Under the pieces are notes generated by a model. That model made no database searches. It saw only the letters and a list, made by a program, of their open reading frames with translations, and had not been told where the DNA came from. From Dehalococcoidia bacterium (lineage in GTDB: Bacteria > Chloroflexota > Dehalococcoidia > Plut-88900), in the NCBI GenBank assembly GCA_965197585.1, contig OZ240215.1, positions 864,001-928,000 of the forward strand: 64,000 nt of DNA, written 5' to 3'. Made by a program: the position numbers and the translations under genes. Below, piece after piece: positions 1 to 61,452 of the stretch (positions within the stretch are counted from its first letter, which is position 1; every line of letters starts with the position of its first letter).

Positions 1-1263
1 CAGGTGAACAAGGCGGAGAGAATGCCCGAGCTGGTTAGCGTGGCATTCCGCAAAGCTTGGGGCAACAGGCCGGGGCCCGTGTACCTGGACCTTCCCGGCG
101 ACGTGCTCCACGAGCGGGTGGACGAGGCGAACGTACAGTTCCCGGTCAACTCCAGGACCGACGCTCGAATCCTTGGGGACCCGGATGAAGTTAAGAGGGC
201 AATCGAGCTTTTGTCCAAGGCCGAGAAGCCCTTGGTCCTGTCGGGGACGGGTGTGATGTGGTCAAAGGCATCCAAGGAGATCCAGGAGTTTGTCGAAACC
301 ACGGGTATTCCCTTCTACACGACACCCCAGTCCAGGGGCGTGATACCCGAAGACAACGAACTTTCCTTCCCGGCCGCCCGCTCAATGGCGTTCAGGGAAG
401 CCGACGTAGCCCTGGTTGTGGGTACCAGGATCAACTGGATCTGGCAGTACCTGCAGGCCCCCCGGTTTAGGGCGGACCTGAAAACTATCCAGGTGAATAC
501 GGACAGGGAAGAGATTGGCCACAACAAGGCGGCGGAAGTCGGCATAGTCGGGGACGCCAAGATGGTGCTGCGACAGCTGATGGAAGAGGCTAAAGAGCAG
601 AAATTCGAGAACAAGAGCAAGAGTGCGTGGATCGATCAGTTGCGCGCCAAGGAGGCTACCAACAACGAGCGAAGCCAGCCCACCCTGAACTCCGACCAGA
701 TCCCGATGCACCCGCTCCGCATGATGAAGGAAATCAGGGAATTCCTGCCCAGGGATGCCATGTTGGTCGTAGACGGCCACGAGACTTTGAACTTCGGTCG
801 GCAGTCCATACAGACCTACTACCCTGGTCACAGGATCAACTCCGGTGCGTCGGGGTGCATGGGGGTCGGGCTTCCGTTCGGGCTGGCGTCGGCGCTGGCG
901 AAGCCGGACAAGAAGACGCTGGTAATCCACGGTGACGGCTCCTTCGGGATCAACGCCATCAATATAGACACGGCGGTCAGGCACAACATCCCGCTGGTGT
1001 GTGTGGTGAACGTGAACGGCGGTTGGGCGTCGGGACGAAAGGGCGACGACGTTCTGAAGACGGGAATCGAGCTCGGATTCGAGCAGCGATACGACAAGCT
1101 GGGAGAGGCTCTCGGCGCGCATGGTGAATACGTCACGAAGCCGGAAGAGATGAAACCCGCCCTGCAGCGAGCCTTCGACTCCGGCAAGCCGGCTATCGTC
1201 AATGTGATCACCGACCGCTGGGCCGCTTCCACGACCCAGAACTTCCAGCCCTACGATCACTAG
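1..1263 (+). CDS. ThDP-dependent enzyme (acetolactate synthase / 2-hydroxyacyl-CoA lyase-like), 5'-truncated by window
   Basis: RPGPVYLDLPGD motif, central FAD-binding-like domain, C-terminal ThDP motif GDGSFG...VNGGW. Confidence 0.9.
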   Translation, partial: QVNKAERMPELVSVAFRKAWGNRPGPVYLDLPGDVLHERVDEANVQFPVNSRTDARILGDPDEVKRAIELLSKAEKPLVLSGTGVMWSKASKEIQEFVETTGIPFYTTPQSRGVIPEDNELSFPAARSMAFREADVALVVGTRINWIWQYLQAPRFRADLKTIQVNTDREEIGHNKAAEVGIVGDAKMVLRQLMEEAKEQKFENKSKSAWIDQLRAKEATNNERSQPTLNSDQIPMHPLRMMKEIREFLPRDAMLVVDGHETLNFGRQSIQTYYPGHRINSGASGCMGVGLPFGLASALAKPDKKTLVIHGDGSFGINAINIDTAVRHNIPLVCVVNVNGGWASGRKGDDVLKTGIELGFEQRYDKLGEALGAHGEYVTKPEEMKPALQRAFDSGKPAIVNVITDRWAASTTQNFQPYDH

Positions 1264-56198: not shown

Positions 56199-58595
56199 TT
56201 GATCATACTTCTCCGGCTATACAAGCTCTTTCCCAAGGGCAACACCTTAAGCCTGCTAATCATCGGCCTGCTCGTCATTGCAGCCCTGGTGGTCCTGGTC
56301 CCGAACAAGACGCCCGGCCTTGACAGGGAGGGATTCCGGCAAGGGCTGGACATCAAGGGCGGCACCCACCTCGTCTACGAGGCTATCCCCCCTGAGGGAG
56401 AAGTCGTCACCGATTCCCAGATGGAGGGAGTCATAAGCATAATCCGGCGCCGGGTAGACGCGTTCGGGGTGTCGGAGCCCATCGTACAGAGAGTCGGGGA
56501 CGACCGTATCATGGTGCAGATCCCCGGCATCAAGGACGTGGAACAAGCCAAGAGTCTCATTGGCAAGACGGCCCAGCTTGATTTCCGGGAGCAGAGACGC
56601 AAGGAAGACGGCACATTCGTTACCGATCCCACTACTGGCAGTATCATCTGGGACCCGGCCCTCACGACAAACGATACCGGCCAATTGGCGCCTGTCACGG
56701 GTGAATTCCTGCTCCCGACCTCCCAGGTATTGCTTGACCCGAGCACCAACCTTCCCCAAGTCGCCTTCGAGTTCAATGACGAAGGCGCCAGGATGTTCGA
56801 GAGGGTTACGAGCAGGCTGCTCAACCAGCCCCTGGGGATACATCTTGACGGGGACCTCATCTCTTCCCCGACAGTGCAAGCCGTCATATCGAGAAACGGT
56901 GTAATTACGGGGCTCTCTCTAGACGAAGCAGACGTCTTGGCCATTCAGCTAAACGCGGGCGCCCTTCCCATTCCCATCCAGACGATACGCGAGCAGGACG
57001 TTGATGCAACGCTGGGCGCGGAATCGGTGAGCAAGAGCCTGGTAGCGGGGGTGGTGGGTTTGCTTCTCGTCCTCGGGTTCCTGATGTTCTACTACAGGCT
57101 GCCTGGTGTCCTCTCCGCAGGCGCACTCATAATCTACGGGATGGTGGTGCTGTCGACGTTCAAGCTGCTTCCCGTGACCCTTACGCTCTCGGGCATCGCC
57201 GGCTTCATCTTGTCCATCGGCATGGCGGTCGACGCCAACGTCCTTATATTCGAAAGACTGAAAGAGGAATTACGAGCGGGTCGAAGTCTGAGGGTAGGCA
57301 TTGAGGCGGGGTTCAACCGGGCCTGGGTGGCCATCCGTGACAGCAATGTCTCGACACTGATCACCTGCGCCATATTGTGGTGGTTCGGGAACAAGCTGGG
57401 GACACCGCTGGTAACCGGCTTTGCGATCACGCTGGCCATCGGCGTGGTAACAAGCATGTTCTCGGCGATGTTCGTGACCAGGAGTTTCCTCAGGTTCGTC
57501 GTCGGGGCCCGGGTGCAGGAGAAGCCTGGGTTATTCGGACTGGGCAAGGCCGGGGCTCAGGCGGTCGAGGCTTCAACCCCTCGGCGTGGGCTGAACCTGG
57601 TCAACAAGCGGGTCTGGTACTTCGTTATCTCGGGGGCGGTCCTGTTACCGGGCATCGTCTCCCTGATCTTCCCTCCGGCCTTCAACACGGGCATCGAGTT
57701 CTCCAGTGGCTCGACCATTGAGGTTCGGTTCATAAACCCCTCCGACCTGTCGAGACTCACGACCGGTGCGGTTACGTCTCAGGCCGTGCGGGAGGTGCTG
57801 GACGAGCTGGGGCACGGCGACGCGATAGTTCAAGCCCTGGAGGCCAATGCGTTCCTCATCCGTACCGAGACGCTGGGGCAGGGTGAGATCGACCAGGACG
57901 GGAACGTGGGCCCCTCGGACAGCCAGCTTATTCAGCAGGCATTCGCACAGCGCTTTGGGGGGACGAGTATAGACCGCTTCGAGGTCGACTTCGTGTCTCC
58001 GATAGTAGCCGCTGAGATGGTGCGTAACGCGGCGCTGGCAGTGCTGTTCGCAATAATCGGCATTTTCTTATACATAGCGTGGGCATTTCGTAAGATGCCC
58101 CATTTCTTCCGATATAGCCTATCGGCGGTATTTGCCCTGTCCCACGACGTCCTGATAGTACTGGGCCTCTTCTCGATCATGGGGAAGGTGTTCGGGATTG
58201 AGCTGAATACAATGGTGATCACAGCCATCCTGGCAGTGATCGGTTACAGCATTAACAACACCATCGTAGTCTTCGACCGCATCAGGGAGAACATGCTCAA
58301 GCGGACGGGCGAGCGGTTCGAAGTCACCGTGAACAACAGCCTGCTGGAGACGATGGGTCGATCGCTGAACACCAGCCTGACAACGCTGTTCACGCTGATG
58401 GCCCTGGCCCTCTTTGGCGGGAGTACGCTGCTGCCGTTCATCCTGGTACTGCTCATCGGCGTGATTGCCGGAACGTACAGTTCCATGCTGATAGGCCCGC
58501 AGATTCTGGTGATGTGGGAGAACCGGGAGTTCGGCGTGATACTGCGCCGTGTCCAGGCCCGGCTCGGCGGAGCCCGAGCCCGCACCCCCACTTAG
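56199..58595 (+). CDS. secDF: Fused protein translocase subunit SecDF
   Basis: GLD..GG, GVSEP, IGMAVDANVLIFER (SecD) plus GIEF..G, GYSINNTIVVFDRIREN, GTYSS (SecF) in one ORF. Confidence 0.95.
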   Translation: MIILLRLYKLFPKGNTLSLLIIGLLVIAALVVLVPNKTPGLDREGFRQGLDIKGGTHLVYEAIPPEGEVVTDSQMEGVISIIRRRVDAFGVSEPIVQRVGDDRIMVQIPGIKDVEQAKSLIGKTAQLDFREQRRKEDGTFVTDPTTGSIIWDPALTTNDTGQLAPVTGEFLLPTSQVLLDPSTNLPQVAFEFNDEGARMFERVTSRLLNQPLGIHLDGDLISSPTVQAVISRNGVITGLSLDEADVLAIQLNAGALPIPIQTIREQDVDATLGAESVSKSLVAGVVGLLLVLGFLMFYYRLPGVLSAGALIIYGMVVLSTFKLLPVTLTLSGIAGFILSIGMAVDANVLIFERLKEELRAGRSLRVGIEAGFNRAWVAIRDSNVSTLITCAILWWFGNKLGTPLVTGFAITLAIGVVTSMFSAMFVTRSFLRFVVGARVQEKPGLFGLGKAGAQAVEASTPRRGLNLVNKRVWYFVISGAVLLPGIVSLIFPPAFNTGIEFSSGSTIEVRFINPSDLSRLTTGAVTSQAVREVLDELGHGDAIVQALEANAFLIRTETLGQGEIDQDGNVGPSDSQLIQQAFAQRFGGTSIDRFEVDFVSPIVAAEMVRNAALAVLFAIIGIFLYIAWAFRKMPHFFRYSLSAVFALSHDVLIVLGLFSIMGKVFGIELNTMVITAILAVIGYSINNTIVVFDRIRENMLKRTGERFEVTVNNSLLETMGRSLNTSLTTLFTLMALALFGGSTLLPFILVLLIGVIAGTYSSMLIGPQILVMWENREFGVILRRVQARLGGARARTPT

Positions 58596-58723
58596 CTCCT
58601 GGACCTTGGGCGTAGGCCCCAAACGCCATCTTTTCCTTGACACCGGATACCCCTGAATATACCCTCACGTTAGGGAACTGGAAGGCCCGTAGCCCCCAAG
58701 TAGAGACAGCGAAGGAAGGGATA

Positions 58724-59593
58724 ATGAGAGACAAACTCGTAACCCTGGAACAGGCCGCCAACCTGGTACGTACCGGCGACAAAGTGATCATGATGGGGGG
58801 CCTGGACTACACCCCAATGGCGCTATTGAGGGAGATAGTCAGGGGCGGGACGACTGACCTGAACACTCTCGGTGTGGTGGGAGCGTCACTGAATCTCGAC
58901 TTCCTGGTCGGGGCGGGTCGGACGGCCACCGTGGAGACCTGCGATTTCAACTTCCAGCCCTTCGCCAGGGTCGCGCCCAACTACCTGCGCCTCCAGAAGC
59001 AGGGCCGCATCAAGATGAAAGACAACACCTGAGGCGTGCTCTATAGCATGGTCCAGGCTGGATCAATGGGCATCCCCTTCGTCCCGACCCTCGGCTACGC
59101 AGGCAGTGACGTAATTAGGGAAAGAGACGACTTCACCATGGCCCCCAACCCCTTCGACCCGTCAGAGACGGTGGTGATGGCCAAGGCTATCACTCCCGAC
59201 GTCGCATTGTTCCACGGAAGCAAGGGTGACAGCCGAGGCAACGTGCTGGTCAGCAAAGGCGGGGAAGCCTTGATGCTGGCGCAGGCGTCGGACAAGGTGG
59301 TAGTGACGGTTGAGGAGATCGTGGATTCGGTCTCGCAGAACGATCCAACGGGGACTTTCATTCCTGCAATCCACGTCAAGGCTGTGGCCCACGCGCCTTT
59401 CGGGGCCTACCCCAGCGCGTGCCCGGGCTTCTATGGCATGGACGTGGAGGAGATGAAGAAGTACCTGGACGCTTCCACTTCCGACGAGACCTTTGAAGGT
59501 TACCTGGCCGATGAGGTATACGCCTTCCACGACCACGAGGACTACTGCCGGTCTCGGGGCCTGGGGGTTCGGGTGCCTGCAGCGGTGGGGTAG
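58724..59593 (+). CDS. Family-I CoA-transferase-fold subunit alpha (GctA/IpdA-like), probable selenoprotein (UGA at codon 103)
   Basis: ORFs 58637-59032 and 59036-59593 are in the same frame, separated only by TGA 59030-59032; the joined 289-aa protein has DKL..L.QA...V..GD, PMAL.RE, GIPF.P, PD.A..H....D..GN, V.VEE. Confidence 0.85.
59033..59072 (+). promoter_or_regulatory. Putative bacterial SECIS element
   Basis: Hairpin TGGTCCA-GGC-TGGATCA (59049-59065) with a G-first apical loop 23 nt after the UGA. Confidence 0.6.
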
Positions 59594-60345
59594 TGTCTCA
59601 ACCGCCTAACTGCACGTTCGAAGAGTTCATGGCCGTCCTCCTGTCGCGGGAGGTGCATGATTGGGAGACCTCGGCCTGCGGTGCACTGTCCTTCATACCT
59701 GCCTCCGCACTCCTTCTGGCCGAAGCGTCCCACGCCCCGAACGGCGAATTCATAGTCCTGGACAGCGACTACTACAACCCGTTCGTCGGGGGGAAGGACT
59801 TCCACTACCTCGCCCAGAGGGGAAAGCTCGACCTGTTCTTCATGAGCGGGATCGAGATAGACCGGGAGGCCAACTTCAACCTGCACCTCATCGGAGACCC
59901 CGATTCGCCAGAGGTCAGGATGCCGGGTCAATACGGAACGGGGCTCCTCTACTATGCCGTGCCCCGCATAGTGCTCTTCCGCACCCGCCACGATAAGCGG
60001 ACATTCGTTGAGAAAGTGGACTATGTCTCGGCGGCTTCCTCTTCGCCGGAGGGCTTTGTCCGCCGTACAAAGGAAGTGGGGGTAATAACTCCGCTGGCAA
60101 AGATGGAGCTATCGAGGGAGTCGGGTATATTGGAGTTGGTCTCTGTGCACCAGGGGCACACGCTTGAAGAGGTGAGAGAGAACACGGGCTTCGAGCTGAA
60201 GATTAAGGACGGCGGCGAGACTGCGCCGATGACTCCGATTATTTCTGATGAGGAGCTTCACCTGCTCCGTACAGACGTCAAGGCCCGAATGATCGAAACC
60301 AACACCTACCCCCACGACGCCCGGGCCAATATACGCGAAGCGTAA
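59593..60345 (+). CDS. Family-I CoA-transferase-fold subunit beta (GctB/IpdB-like)
   Basis: E.M...L.RE, HAPN, D.FF.SG..ID..AN.N, R.PG, H.KR.FVEKVDY.S, L.SVH.G....V.ENTGF; overlaps the alpha stop codon. Confidence 0.88.
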   Translation: MSQPPNCTFEEFMAVLLSREVHDWETSACGALSFIPASALLLAEASHAPNGEFIVLDSDYYNPFVGGKDFHYLAQRGKLDLFFMSGIEIDREANFNLHLIGDPDSPEVRMPGQYGTGLLYYAVPRIVLFRTRHDKRTFVEKVDYVSAASSSPEGFVRRTKEVGVITPLAKMELSRESGILELVSVHQGHTLEEVRENTGFELKIKDGGETAPMTPIISDEELHLLRTDVKARMIETNTYPHDARANIREA

Positions 60346-60390: not shown

Positions 60391-61452
60391 CTATTGGGAA
60401 GTGCGCTTGATGCGGGCCACACTGCGGATTCGGTCCTCGGCGAGACGGTCTGCGGCGGAGGCGGTGGTGATGCCCTCCGCCTTGGCCCGATCGAAGATAT
60501 CCAGAAGAGTGTCGTAGACCTTGGCGGTCCGGTCCATGGCCGCATCCCTGCTCTTACCCTCAACCTCACAGGCCACGGTTATTACACCGCCGGCGTTTAT
60601 GGCGTAGTCGGGTGCATAGAGGATGCCGGCTTCGGCGAGGGCCTCTGCGTGGCGAGGGTCCTTGAGTTGGTTGTTGGCGGCCCCTGCCACTATTGGCGCC
60701 TTGATCTGGGGAATGGTGTCGTCGTTTAGGACGGCGCCCAGGGCGCAGGGAGAGAAGATATCGCATTCGACGGCATGTATCTCTTCCGGCGCGACTATGG
60801 AAGCCCCGAGTGCAACCGCCTCAGCAATTCTGGACTCGTTGATGTCGGCGGCGATGACCCGGGCGCCATCTTCCCGCAGGTGTCGAGCGTAGTTGTAAGC
60901 GACCTTCCCGAAACCTTGGATGGCGACGGTCTTACCGTTCAGGGAGTCGGAGCCCGTGAGCTCCTTCATGCAGGCGCGAGCCCCTTGGTAGATTCCGAAC
61001 CCGGTAATCACCTCTGCCCCGCCCAGTCCGCCGTGGGACTCGGGGAGACCGGCAGCGTAGCGGGTCTCCTTGCGCATGTGGACAACATCCTGGTTCACGA
61101 CGCCGACGTCCTCAGTAGTGATGAAACGGCCCCCCAGGGTGTCGACGAAACGGCCGTGGGCGCGGAATAGGGACTCGGATTTGTCGGTGTTGGAGTCGGC
61201 GATGATGACGGCCTTGCCGCCCCCGTAGTCGAGACCGGCCAGCGATGACTTGTAAGTCATTGCCCTTGCGAGGCGCAACACGTCCAGGATTGCCTCTTCC
61301 TCGGTGGCGAAGGGCCACATGCGGGTGCCCCCGCAGGCAGGCCCGAGCGTCGTGTCGTGAATGCAAATGAGAGCCCTGAGACTGGCAGCCTCATCGGTGT
61401 AAAGGGCCAGCTCCTCGTACCCGTACTGCTCCATGTAATCGAAGATTTTCAT
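60391..61452 (-). CDS. Glu/Leu/Phe/Val dehydrogenase (leucine dehydrogenase-like)
   Basis: IHDTTLGPA.GG.R, MTYK, GGGK, EDVG, QG.GKV, GAANNQ, PDY..NAGG. Confidence 0.93.
   Translation of the reverse strand: MKIFDYMEQYGYEELALYTDEAASLRALICIHDTTLGPACGGTRMWPFATEEEAILDVLRLARAMTYKSSLAGLDYGGGKAVIIADSNTDKSESLFRAHGRFVDTLGGRFITTEDVGVVNQDVVHMRKETRYAAGLPESHGGLGGAEVITGFGIYQGARACMKELTGSDSLNGKTVAIQGFGKVAYNYARHLREDGARVIAADINESRIAEAVALGASIVAPEEIHAVECDIFSPCALGAVLNDDTIPQIKAPIVAGAANNQLKDPRHAEALAEAGILYAPDYAINAGGVITVACEVEGKSRDAAMDRTAKVYDTLLDIFDRAKAEGITTASAADRLAEDRIRSVARIKRTSQ

Follow-up and report, generated by a model that had tools for sequence, protein, structure and literature searches.

The gene for the alpha subunit of a two-subunit enzyme with the CoA-transferase fold contains an in-frame TGA that, judged by comparison across genomes, is almost certainly a selenocysteine (Sec) codon. 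The gene lies in a stretch of 64,000 nucleotides from a Dehalococcoidia bacterium, hereafter the window. The genome is a single contig of 3.43 Mb and 91.9% complete. We hold with high confidence that the TGA is a genuine Sec codon within a single alpha gene. Positions 58724-59593 would then form one selenoprotein gene, whose product is the alpha half of a heterodimer. Within the CoA-transferase fold this enzyme would belong to the GctAB/IpdAB/AibAB branch. Alpha would be co-transcribed and translationally coupled with beta at 59593-60345 (Table 1).

Table 1. The alpha-beta locus, in window positions.
Feature	Position	Strand	Description
Alpha gene	58724..59593	+	ATG at 58724, TAG at 59591-59593; 289 codons with one in-frame TGA; read directly
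In-frame TGA, codon 103 (U103)	59030..59032	+	Context KDNT-U-GVLYSMVQAG; the TGA/Cys column
Purine-rich GAAGGAAGG	58711..58719	+	Read directly; likely the ribosome-binding site of alpha
Beta gene	59593..60345	+	GTG start at 59593, 250 codons; 1 nt in common with the alpha stop
SECIS-like hairpin TGGTCCA-GGC-TGGATCA	59049..59065	+	Stem 59049-59055 / 59059-59065, loop GGC 59056-59058

One TGA at one column in many lineages

A sequence-only reading of this DNA had described a single TGA that splits an otherwise whole gene, followed by an intact and coupled beta gene. Direct reading of 58724-59593 confirms both: the 289-codon frame holds one TGA, and the beta start codon overlaps the alpha stop by one nucleotide. 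Under table 11, alpha is broken into ORFs of 131 and 185 aa, the second of which starts at a GTG (59036) directly 3' of the TGA.

A lone in-frame stop resembles a pseudogene, and gene callers treat it as such. Among 120 database matches, 61 are truncated ORFs that begin at Met106, 109 or 115, just past the TGA, which is what a gene caller leaves after a stop at this place. Yet a nonsense mutation, an assembly error or a pseudogene deserves practically no weight as an explanation. About 130 loci, spread over several phyla, have this codon at this very column, and both halves of the gene are under purifying selection in one frame. In three relatives, alpha residues 1-102 are conserved at 91, 72 and 69%, vs 81, 67 and 56% for the remainder; hence conservation on the N-terminal side matches that on the C-terminal side. 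Over 58990-59287, TGA included, a DNA-run contig has the same sequence as the window, and the alpha-beta coupling is preserved in 11 of 11 loci of the window's family. The pseudogene and assembly-error reading is thus already refuted by conservation.

The TGA is also bridged by contigs of two RNA libraries from different studies. These contigs stem from relatives of about 93% identity and may represent DNA carry-over; the comparison (40 of the 253 differences listed) uses contigs only and so gives no level, strand or ends.

How often the TGA recurs was assessed in three sets of genomes. In 61 related genomes 32 loci were examined, and TGA occupies the identical aligned column in 16 of the 31 loci in which this column is aligned. 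Each of the 16 has exactly one TGA in the homologous frame. They belong to four families, range from 100 to 34% identity, and carry the motifs KDNT-U-G and LDS[TG]-U-P around the column. A sample of 401 genomes of the phylum contributed 28 further loci, four with TGA in the contexts KDTA-U-G and EH[TA]-U-[AI]. Finally, a scan of a metagenome collection and of a set holding one genome for each species gave TGA at the column in 120 of 160 loci (79 of the 80 loci from species genomes), counts from a narrower alignment (A3) and two search patterns, one of which contains Cys, so that the Sec:Cys ratio among these loci is not a frequency. Ten of the loci (L175-L184) are the same places as L028-L037; thus the total is roughly 130 TGA loci, not all independent. 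It is this comparison across loci, and not the thermodynamics of a single sequence, that puts the observation far beyond chance.

By their record labels, some of which look unreliable for metagenome-assembled genomes (MAGs), the species genomes with TGA comprise 29 Betaproteobacteria, 30 Chloroflexota (23 of them Dehalococcoidia), 4 Binatia, several delta-type lineages, a single Methylomirabilota and a single Thermodesulfobacteriota. Among six records (L210, L237, L215, L234, L246 and L249) some are labelled Bordetella parapertussis, Streptomyces or Enterobacteriaceae, and their sequences group with Betaproteobacteria- or Binatia-type copies. These labels are probably binning or naming artefacts. 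One genome of the phylum (G357) has two homologues, L057 and G357:C445:1248-2027, with one in-frame TGA each; the column was checked for L057.

The residue that replaces Sec in the closest homologues is Cys. Cys stands at the TGA column in 14 of the 55 database homologues that cover it, and these 14 are the closest full-length matches (motifs DNTCG, DSTCP, EHACP and ESACY). The Cys motif 'D.TCP....LQA', which the sequence-only reading had named, is indeed present in homologues P0070 and P0071. Cys is also found at the column in loci L045, L058, L064, L067, L123, L135 and L242. In more distant database homologues the column is Asn (15), Glu (10), His (10) or another residue.

A quick IQ-TREE phylogeny of 69 rows unites the Sec forms with the Cys forms in a single group (29 rows: 18 C, 10 U, 1 V; SH-aLRT 85). 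The tree takes all 28 rows of alignment A1, of any length, plus every further column-covering match of at least 255 aa, with truncated ORFs left out. Glu forms adjoin this group, not the GctA-like Gln forms. On the tree Sec and Cys interchange at least six times, of which at least four changes are forced by starred branches.

The hairpin and the selenocysteine machinery

The hairpin with a G-first loop, also described in the sequence-only reading, lies downstream of the TGA, with the loop G (59056) 23 nt past the A of the TGA. It starts 16 nt after the TGA; the spacing rule of bSECISearch is 16-37 nt. When columns are numbered from the U of UGA, the stem joins 20-26 to 30-36 and encloses GGC. 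Bacterial SECIS elements are described as having a small apical loop that holds a G, directly downstream of the UGA (PMC1088965). The hairpin of the window, at +19..+35, has such a loop, GGC.

The window sequence by itself gives no signal of unusual folding. The fold of 59020-59100 has a stability of z = 0.52, with 133 of 200 shuffles folding at least as well, and the minimum free energy (MFE) structure of this single sequence picks a different hairpin. An Rfam scan of 58950-59200 gave no match, only two chance-level hits. The stem is short, 6-7 bp, and the loop has 3 nt. Furthermore, the central CCAGGCUGG encodes the conserved Q-A-G, so the pairing is partly forced by the peptide.

The alignment carries the case for the hairpin. 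The pairing is present in 95.6% of cells (104 distinct 48-nt sequences). Three pairs show changes on both sides (20:36 as UA/AU/GC, 22:34 as GU/AU/CG, 23:33 as UA/CG; 76 cells). The covariation score was matched by 0 of 500 shuffles, and when the register is slid only 19-46% of cells pair. When 16 relatives were folded from the UGA, the hairpin was in the MFE structure of 14.

Synonymous codon choice gives the same picture. All 120 TGA loci use CAG for Gln and GCT for Ala, and have C as the last base of the codon that precedes Gln. Gly is GGA in 71 of them and GGG in 49, and this synonymous choice varies with the middle base of the same preceding codon. Seven, six and five of the seven pairs are formed in 84, 35 and 1 TGA loci, respectively. 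The hairpin is lost in three Cys forms that share the MVQAG/MIQAA peptide, which make 4, 4 and 3 pairs, a closest-clade control of three DNAs only; the median of 37 other homologues is 3. On this comparative evidence the hairpin is real and selected.

Two further observations concern the same region. Columns 24-32 of alignment A4 (L095-L254), nine bases in all, read CCAGGCTGG in 102 of the 104 distinct sequences, which come from several phyla, and CCAGGCGGG in the other two. Such constancy is unusual where a sequence codes for protein. The three further Sec subtypes L057 (KDTA-U-G), L061/L079 (EHT-U-A) and L078 (EHA-U-I) have hairpins in other registers. Because these registers differ, the observation suggests that the SECIS was rebuilt after independent Cys-to-Sec changes.

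Selenocysteine insertion depends on dedicated machinery, and a check of the genome found all of selA (542.7 bits), selB (369.6 bits), selD (385.4 bits) and tRNA-Sec (Rfam 65.8 bits; ARAGORN tRNA-SeC, anticodon tca). The selD gene lies outside the window (L013; G000:C1:3357253-3358176, minus strand) and has one in-frame TGA itself, in the context HCAG-U-ASK. It is followed on its 3' side by a hairpin with the apical loop at +27..29, vs +26..28 in the alpha gene. Hence, selenophosphate synthetase is itself a selenoprotein here. Across genomes, selA was found in 10 of 10 other TGA-form genomes tested. The co-occurrence is non-discriminating because 5 of 5 Cys-form genomes have selA too, as do 155 of 201 genomes from the phylum as a whole, a tally that takes in three unpublished genomes.

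If TGA were a sense codon for Trp or Gly in a reassigned code, the frame would likewise be open. TGA is not reassigned in this genome, however, because it is the ordinary stop of 541 of 1905 ORFs of at least 300 aa. Moreover, the closest homologues have Cys at the column, not Trp or Gly, and the genome holds a dedicated tRNA-SeC with selA and selB. A changed code is therefore a negligible alternative.

A further alternative is that the UGA terminates and alpha is made as two polypeptides, residues 1-102 and a second piece restarting at GTG 59036 or Met109, with the hairpin serving coupling or attenuation. The 185-aa ORF directly after the TGA would provide the second piece, and divided subunits occur in this fold. 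We nevertheless judge a split alpha very improbable. It would give no reason for a break exactly at a column that holds Cys in unsplit homologues and that toggles with Cys at least four to six times. In the AlphaFold (AF2) model the TGA position lies inside one compact domain, at a strand-helix junction. No Shine-Dalgarno-like run precedes 59036, and the spacing of the hairpin and its small G-containing loop are as in bacterial SECIS elements (PMC1088965).

Selenocysteine insertion, our preferred reading, would follow the usual bacterial route. The hairpin 16 nt downstream of UGA 103 would present its GGC loop and recruit SelB with Sec-tRNA(Sec). We infer this recruitment from the anatomy of the hairpin and from the machinery in the genome.

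The two subunits and the possible chemistry

Both subunits match the Pfam family CoA_trans (alpha 8e-16, beta 1.9e-9). NCBIfam has no dedicated model; its matches are all sub-threshold, to 3-oxoacid and acetate CoA-transferase A subunits. Read through the TGA, alpha matches glutaconate CoA-transferase A best among PDB entries (1poi_A, 4e-35, residues 4-279), followed by AibA (5mzw) and IpdA (6co6, 6coj, 6con). An AF2 model of alpha built from 28 sequences has a pLDDT of 93.1 and a pTM of 0.91. Foldseek places this model with GctA (1poi_A, TM 0.85) and IpdA (0.81-0.84), and next with AibA (0.77). In the model, residue 103 follows strand 97-100 and is the first residue of helix 103-115. Reactive Cys and Sec residues typically cap a helix in this way.

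What occupies column 103 in the known enzymes can be read from the profile of the Cys/Sec clade. The sequence-only reading had aligned the segment with a Glu of IpdA, and this alignment holds: column 103 matches the E of 'REMDEGM' in IpdA from Rhodococcus and M. tuberculosis (6co6_A, 6con_A). The column is Ala in 6coj_A, a PDB entry titled 'IpdAB E105A COCHEA-COA complex', Gln in GctA and Gly in AibA. In keeping with the title of this variant, we take Glu105 to be catalytic in IpdA. In 28 alpha and 12 beta sequences, no Cys other than C103 is invariant. The Sec/Cys column probably marks a catalytic residue.

The beta subunit differs from that of the transferases. Its profile matches AibB best (3.6e-38); the best five alignments are all to AibB variants, and the sole position that differs among these five entries is Cys56. 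In AibB, Cys56 replaces the conserved catalytic glutamate of the glutaconate CoA-transferases (Gcts; PMC7756340). All 12 beta sequences carry L, I, T or D at the Cys56 column (Leu56 in the window). Thus, with the column placed through AibB and not through a GctB alignment, the class I glutamate nucleophile is absent from all 12 beta sequences, as is an AibAB-type Cys. An Asp follows the Glu column in 3 of 4 beta sequences of the window's family and is not conserved outside that family. Since the beta glutamate is missing, the enzyme is probably not a CoA-transferase. In one deltaproteobacterial MAG the beta ORF call (L263, 8902-9957, plus strand) is 351 aa, about 100 aa longer than elsewhere, which may be a start-codon overcall or an N-terminal extension.

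The gene neighbourhood offers little to choose a pathway by. Only the alpha-beta pair recurs across families, and no neighbourhood conserved beyond it was found. Among 58 neighbouring ORFs scanned at about 20 loci, no steroid-catabolism gene was seen. TctC receptors lie in 16 of 120 flanks, often at betaproteobacterial loci, and FAA-hydrolase in 6. Some betaproteobacterial loci have CMD, acyl-CoA dehydrogenase-like, LysR or ADP-forming acyl-CoA synthetase genes, and Chloroflexota loci have Leu/Phe/Val dehydrogenase, aminotransferase, DAO, Zn-ADH or malate synthase genes. The neighbour ORF calls behind these lists are crude and cover the loci other than the lower-GC L260 and L264. These neighbours hint at carboxylate or amino-acid catabolism and give no pathway. 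Context does not settle the choice among chemistries.

In the window, a Glu/Leu/Phe/Val dehydrogenase gene (60391-61452, minus strand) is convergent to beta; it is found in 9 loci of the window's family and in no other lineages. Directly upstream of alpha lies an ORF for a membrane protein of 798 aa (56199-58595, plus strand), which is kept there in the family (L090, 11 loci) and by eye looks like a fused SecD/SecF. A second, weakly related CoA_trans-like pair lies just upstream of the window (L026 and L027, G000:C1:860903-862750). It has Gln at the Sec column and no TGA, and is probably an ordinary 3-oxoacid-type CoA-transferase.

An ordinary CoA-transferase, with another carboxylate or Sec itself in place of the beta glutamate, would agree with the Pfam matches of both subunits and with GctA as the best PDB match. 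The ADP-forming acyl-CoA synthetase and the TctC carboxylate receptors that adjoin some loci, and the Asp after the Glu column in the window's family, also point this way. We still consider a transferase improbable. The Glu column is L, I, T or D in all 12 beta sequences, and the neighbouring Asp is restricted to one family. In addition, the class I ping-pong mechanism requires that CoA be carried, which a selenolate cannot do. The nearest relatives in the tree are Glu-on-alpha forms and not GctA-like Gln forms.

In view of the absent transferase nucleophile, and of Sec or Cys at the very column whose Glu was mutated in the only characterised hydrolase of the branch, we expect an enzyme that transforms CoA esters as IpdAB or AibAB do. 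We file it as one that works like IpdAB or AibAB, yet is a member of neither. Sec103 would cap its helix at the position of IpdA Glu105. The substrate may be an acyl-CoA, probably a beta-keto or unsaturated (di)carboxylyl-CoA. The selenolate could then attack the acyl chain of the bound CoA ester, forming a selenoester or a Michael adduct. The outcome would be an IpdAB-like or thiolase-like (retro-Claisen) C-C cleavage or hydrolysis, or a conjugate addition. That Sec or Cys acts as a nucleophile on the acyl chain is our preferred but tentative proposal, which we hold to be possible rather than probable.

Sec103 may instead be a redox or acid/base group and not a covalent nucleophile on the acyl chain. 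It could protonate an enolate, a part proposed for AibB Cys56, or be joined to CoA-SH or a different thiol in a selenenylsulfide. Thiol-type oxidoreductases make up most of the known selenoproteins (PMC13188914), AibAB decarboxylates within this fold with Cys as a possible general acid (PMC7756340), and a CMD-family gene and an AhpC-like gene adjoin some loci. The 28 alpha and 12 beta sequences, however, have no second conserved Cys that could resolve a selenenylsulfide. Sec has a low pKa and so donates protons poorly. The neighbouring genes also vary from locus to locus. We regard such roles as somewhat unlikely. If the nucleophilic role of Sec103 is correct, there would be a fourth catalytic solution in this fold, beside Glu on beta (transferases), Glu on alpha (IpdAB) and Cys on beta (AibAB).

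Relation to known systems and significance

Each of the three characterised systems shares part of this pattern. IpdAB (PDB 6co6, 6co9, 6coj, 6con), the cholesterol (steroid) ring-cleaving hydrolase, likewise has two subunits of the CoA-transferase fold (Foldseek TM 0.83-0.84) and a beta without the transferase glutamate. Its special residue is also on alpha and in the same column (E105 = U103), and the Glu forms are the nearest group to the Cys/Sec forms in the tree. Unlike the proteins described here, it has Glu at this column instead of Sec or Cys; the identity is 24-25%, and no steroid-catabolism genes lie beside the examined Sec/Cys loci. GctAB (1poi) is the best match of alpha (4e-35 for the single sequence, 8.4e-64 for the profile, TM 0.85) and has the same gene pair. 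It differs in the Gln at the GctA column and in the catalytic Glu of GctB, which is absent here (PMC7756340). AibAB, the 3-methylglutaconyl-CoA decarboxylase (5mzw and others), is the best match of beta and is a non-transferase with Cys in place of the catalytic Glu. In contrast to our pair, its Cys is on beta (Cys56B, here Leu/Ile/Thr/Asp), and AibA has Gly at the Sec column.

More than 110 bacterial selenoprotein families have been defined computationally (PMC13188914). Like these families, the alpha subunit has an in-frame UGA, Cys homologues, a downstream stem-loop with an apical G and the Sec machinery (PMC13188914). The known families mostly have thiol-oxidoreductase folds with UxxC or CxxU motifs (PMC13188914), whereas here a lone Sec stands in a CoA-transferase fold and has no partner Cys.

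The text of the review that covers these families has no entry for a CoA-transferase or PF01144 family (PMC13188914), and the texts of deep-Sep (PMC12013277) and BSepDB (PMC13326102) have none for a CoA-transferase family; supplements may list one. The text of a 2022 review (PMC9312934) names none either, nor do the GOS, Olavius and Sargasso papers or Haft's 2022 preprint, within the passages searched. Literature searches that paired selenoprotein or selenocysteine with (glutaconate) CoA-transferase returned nothing relevant. On this basis, and within the passages searched, we regard the protein as representing a new family of selenoproteins. The recoding is of a known kind, and the catalytic variant of the fold may be new.

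The TGA form is found in at least 79 species-level genomes of the scanned collection. Annotation of this gene suffers from a systematic error, as gene callers give either one fragment (175-186 aa) or two pieces. The intact enzyme is therefore missing from metabolic reconstructions of Dehalococcoidia, SAR202 and freshwater Betaproteobacteria. Nearly every base of the hairpin is kept across phyla, so that it could help to refine models of the bacterial SECIS. The natural Cys forms can be expressed without Sec machinery and thus offer a direct handle for biochemistry.

If confirmed, this would be a widespread selenoprotein family in acyl-CoA metabolism, outside the thiol-oxidoreductases that dominate the known selenoproteome. 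It is conceivable, albeit doubtful, that it is also the first selenoenzyme in which Sec serves as a covalent nucleophile in non-redox acyl-CoA chemistry that breaks or rearranges a carbon skeleton. Should this be true, selenolate acyl-CoA chemistry would operate in many uncultured Dehalococcoidia and freshwater Betaproteobacteria.
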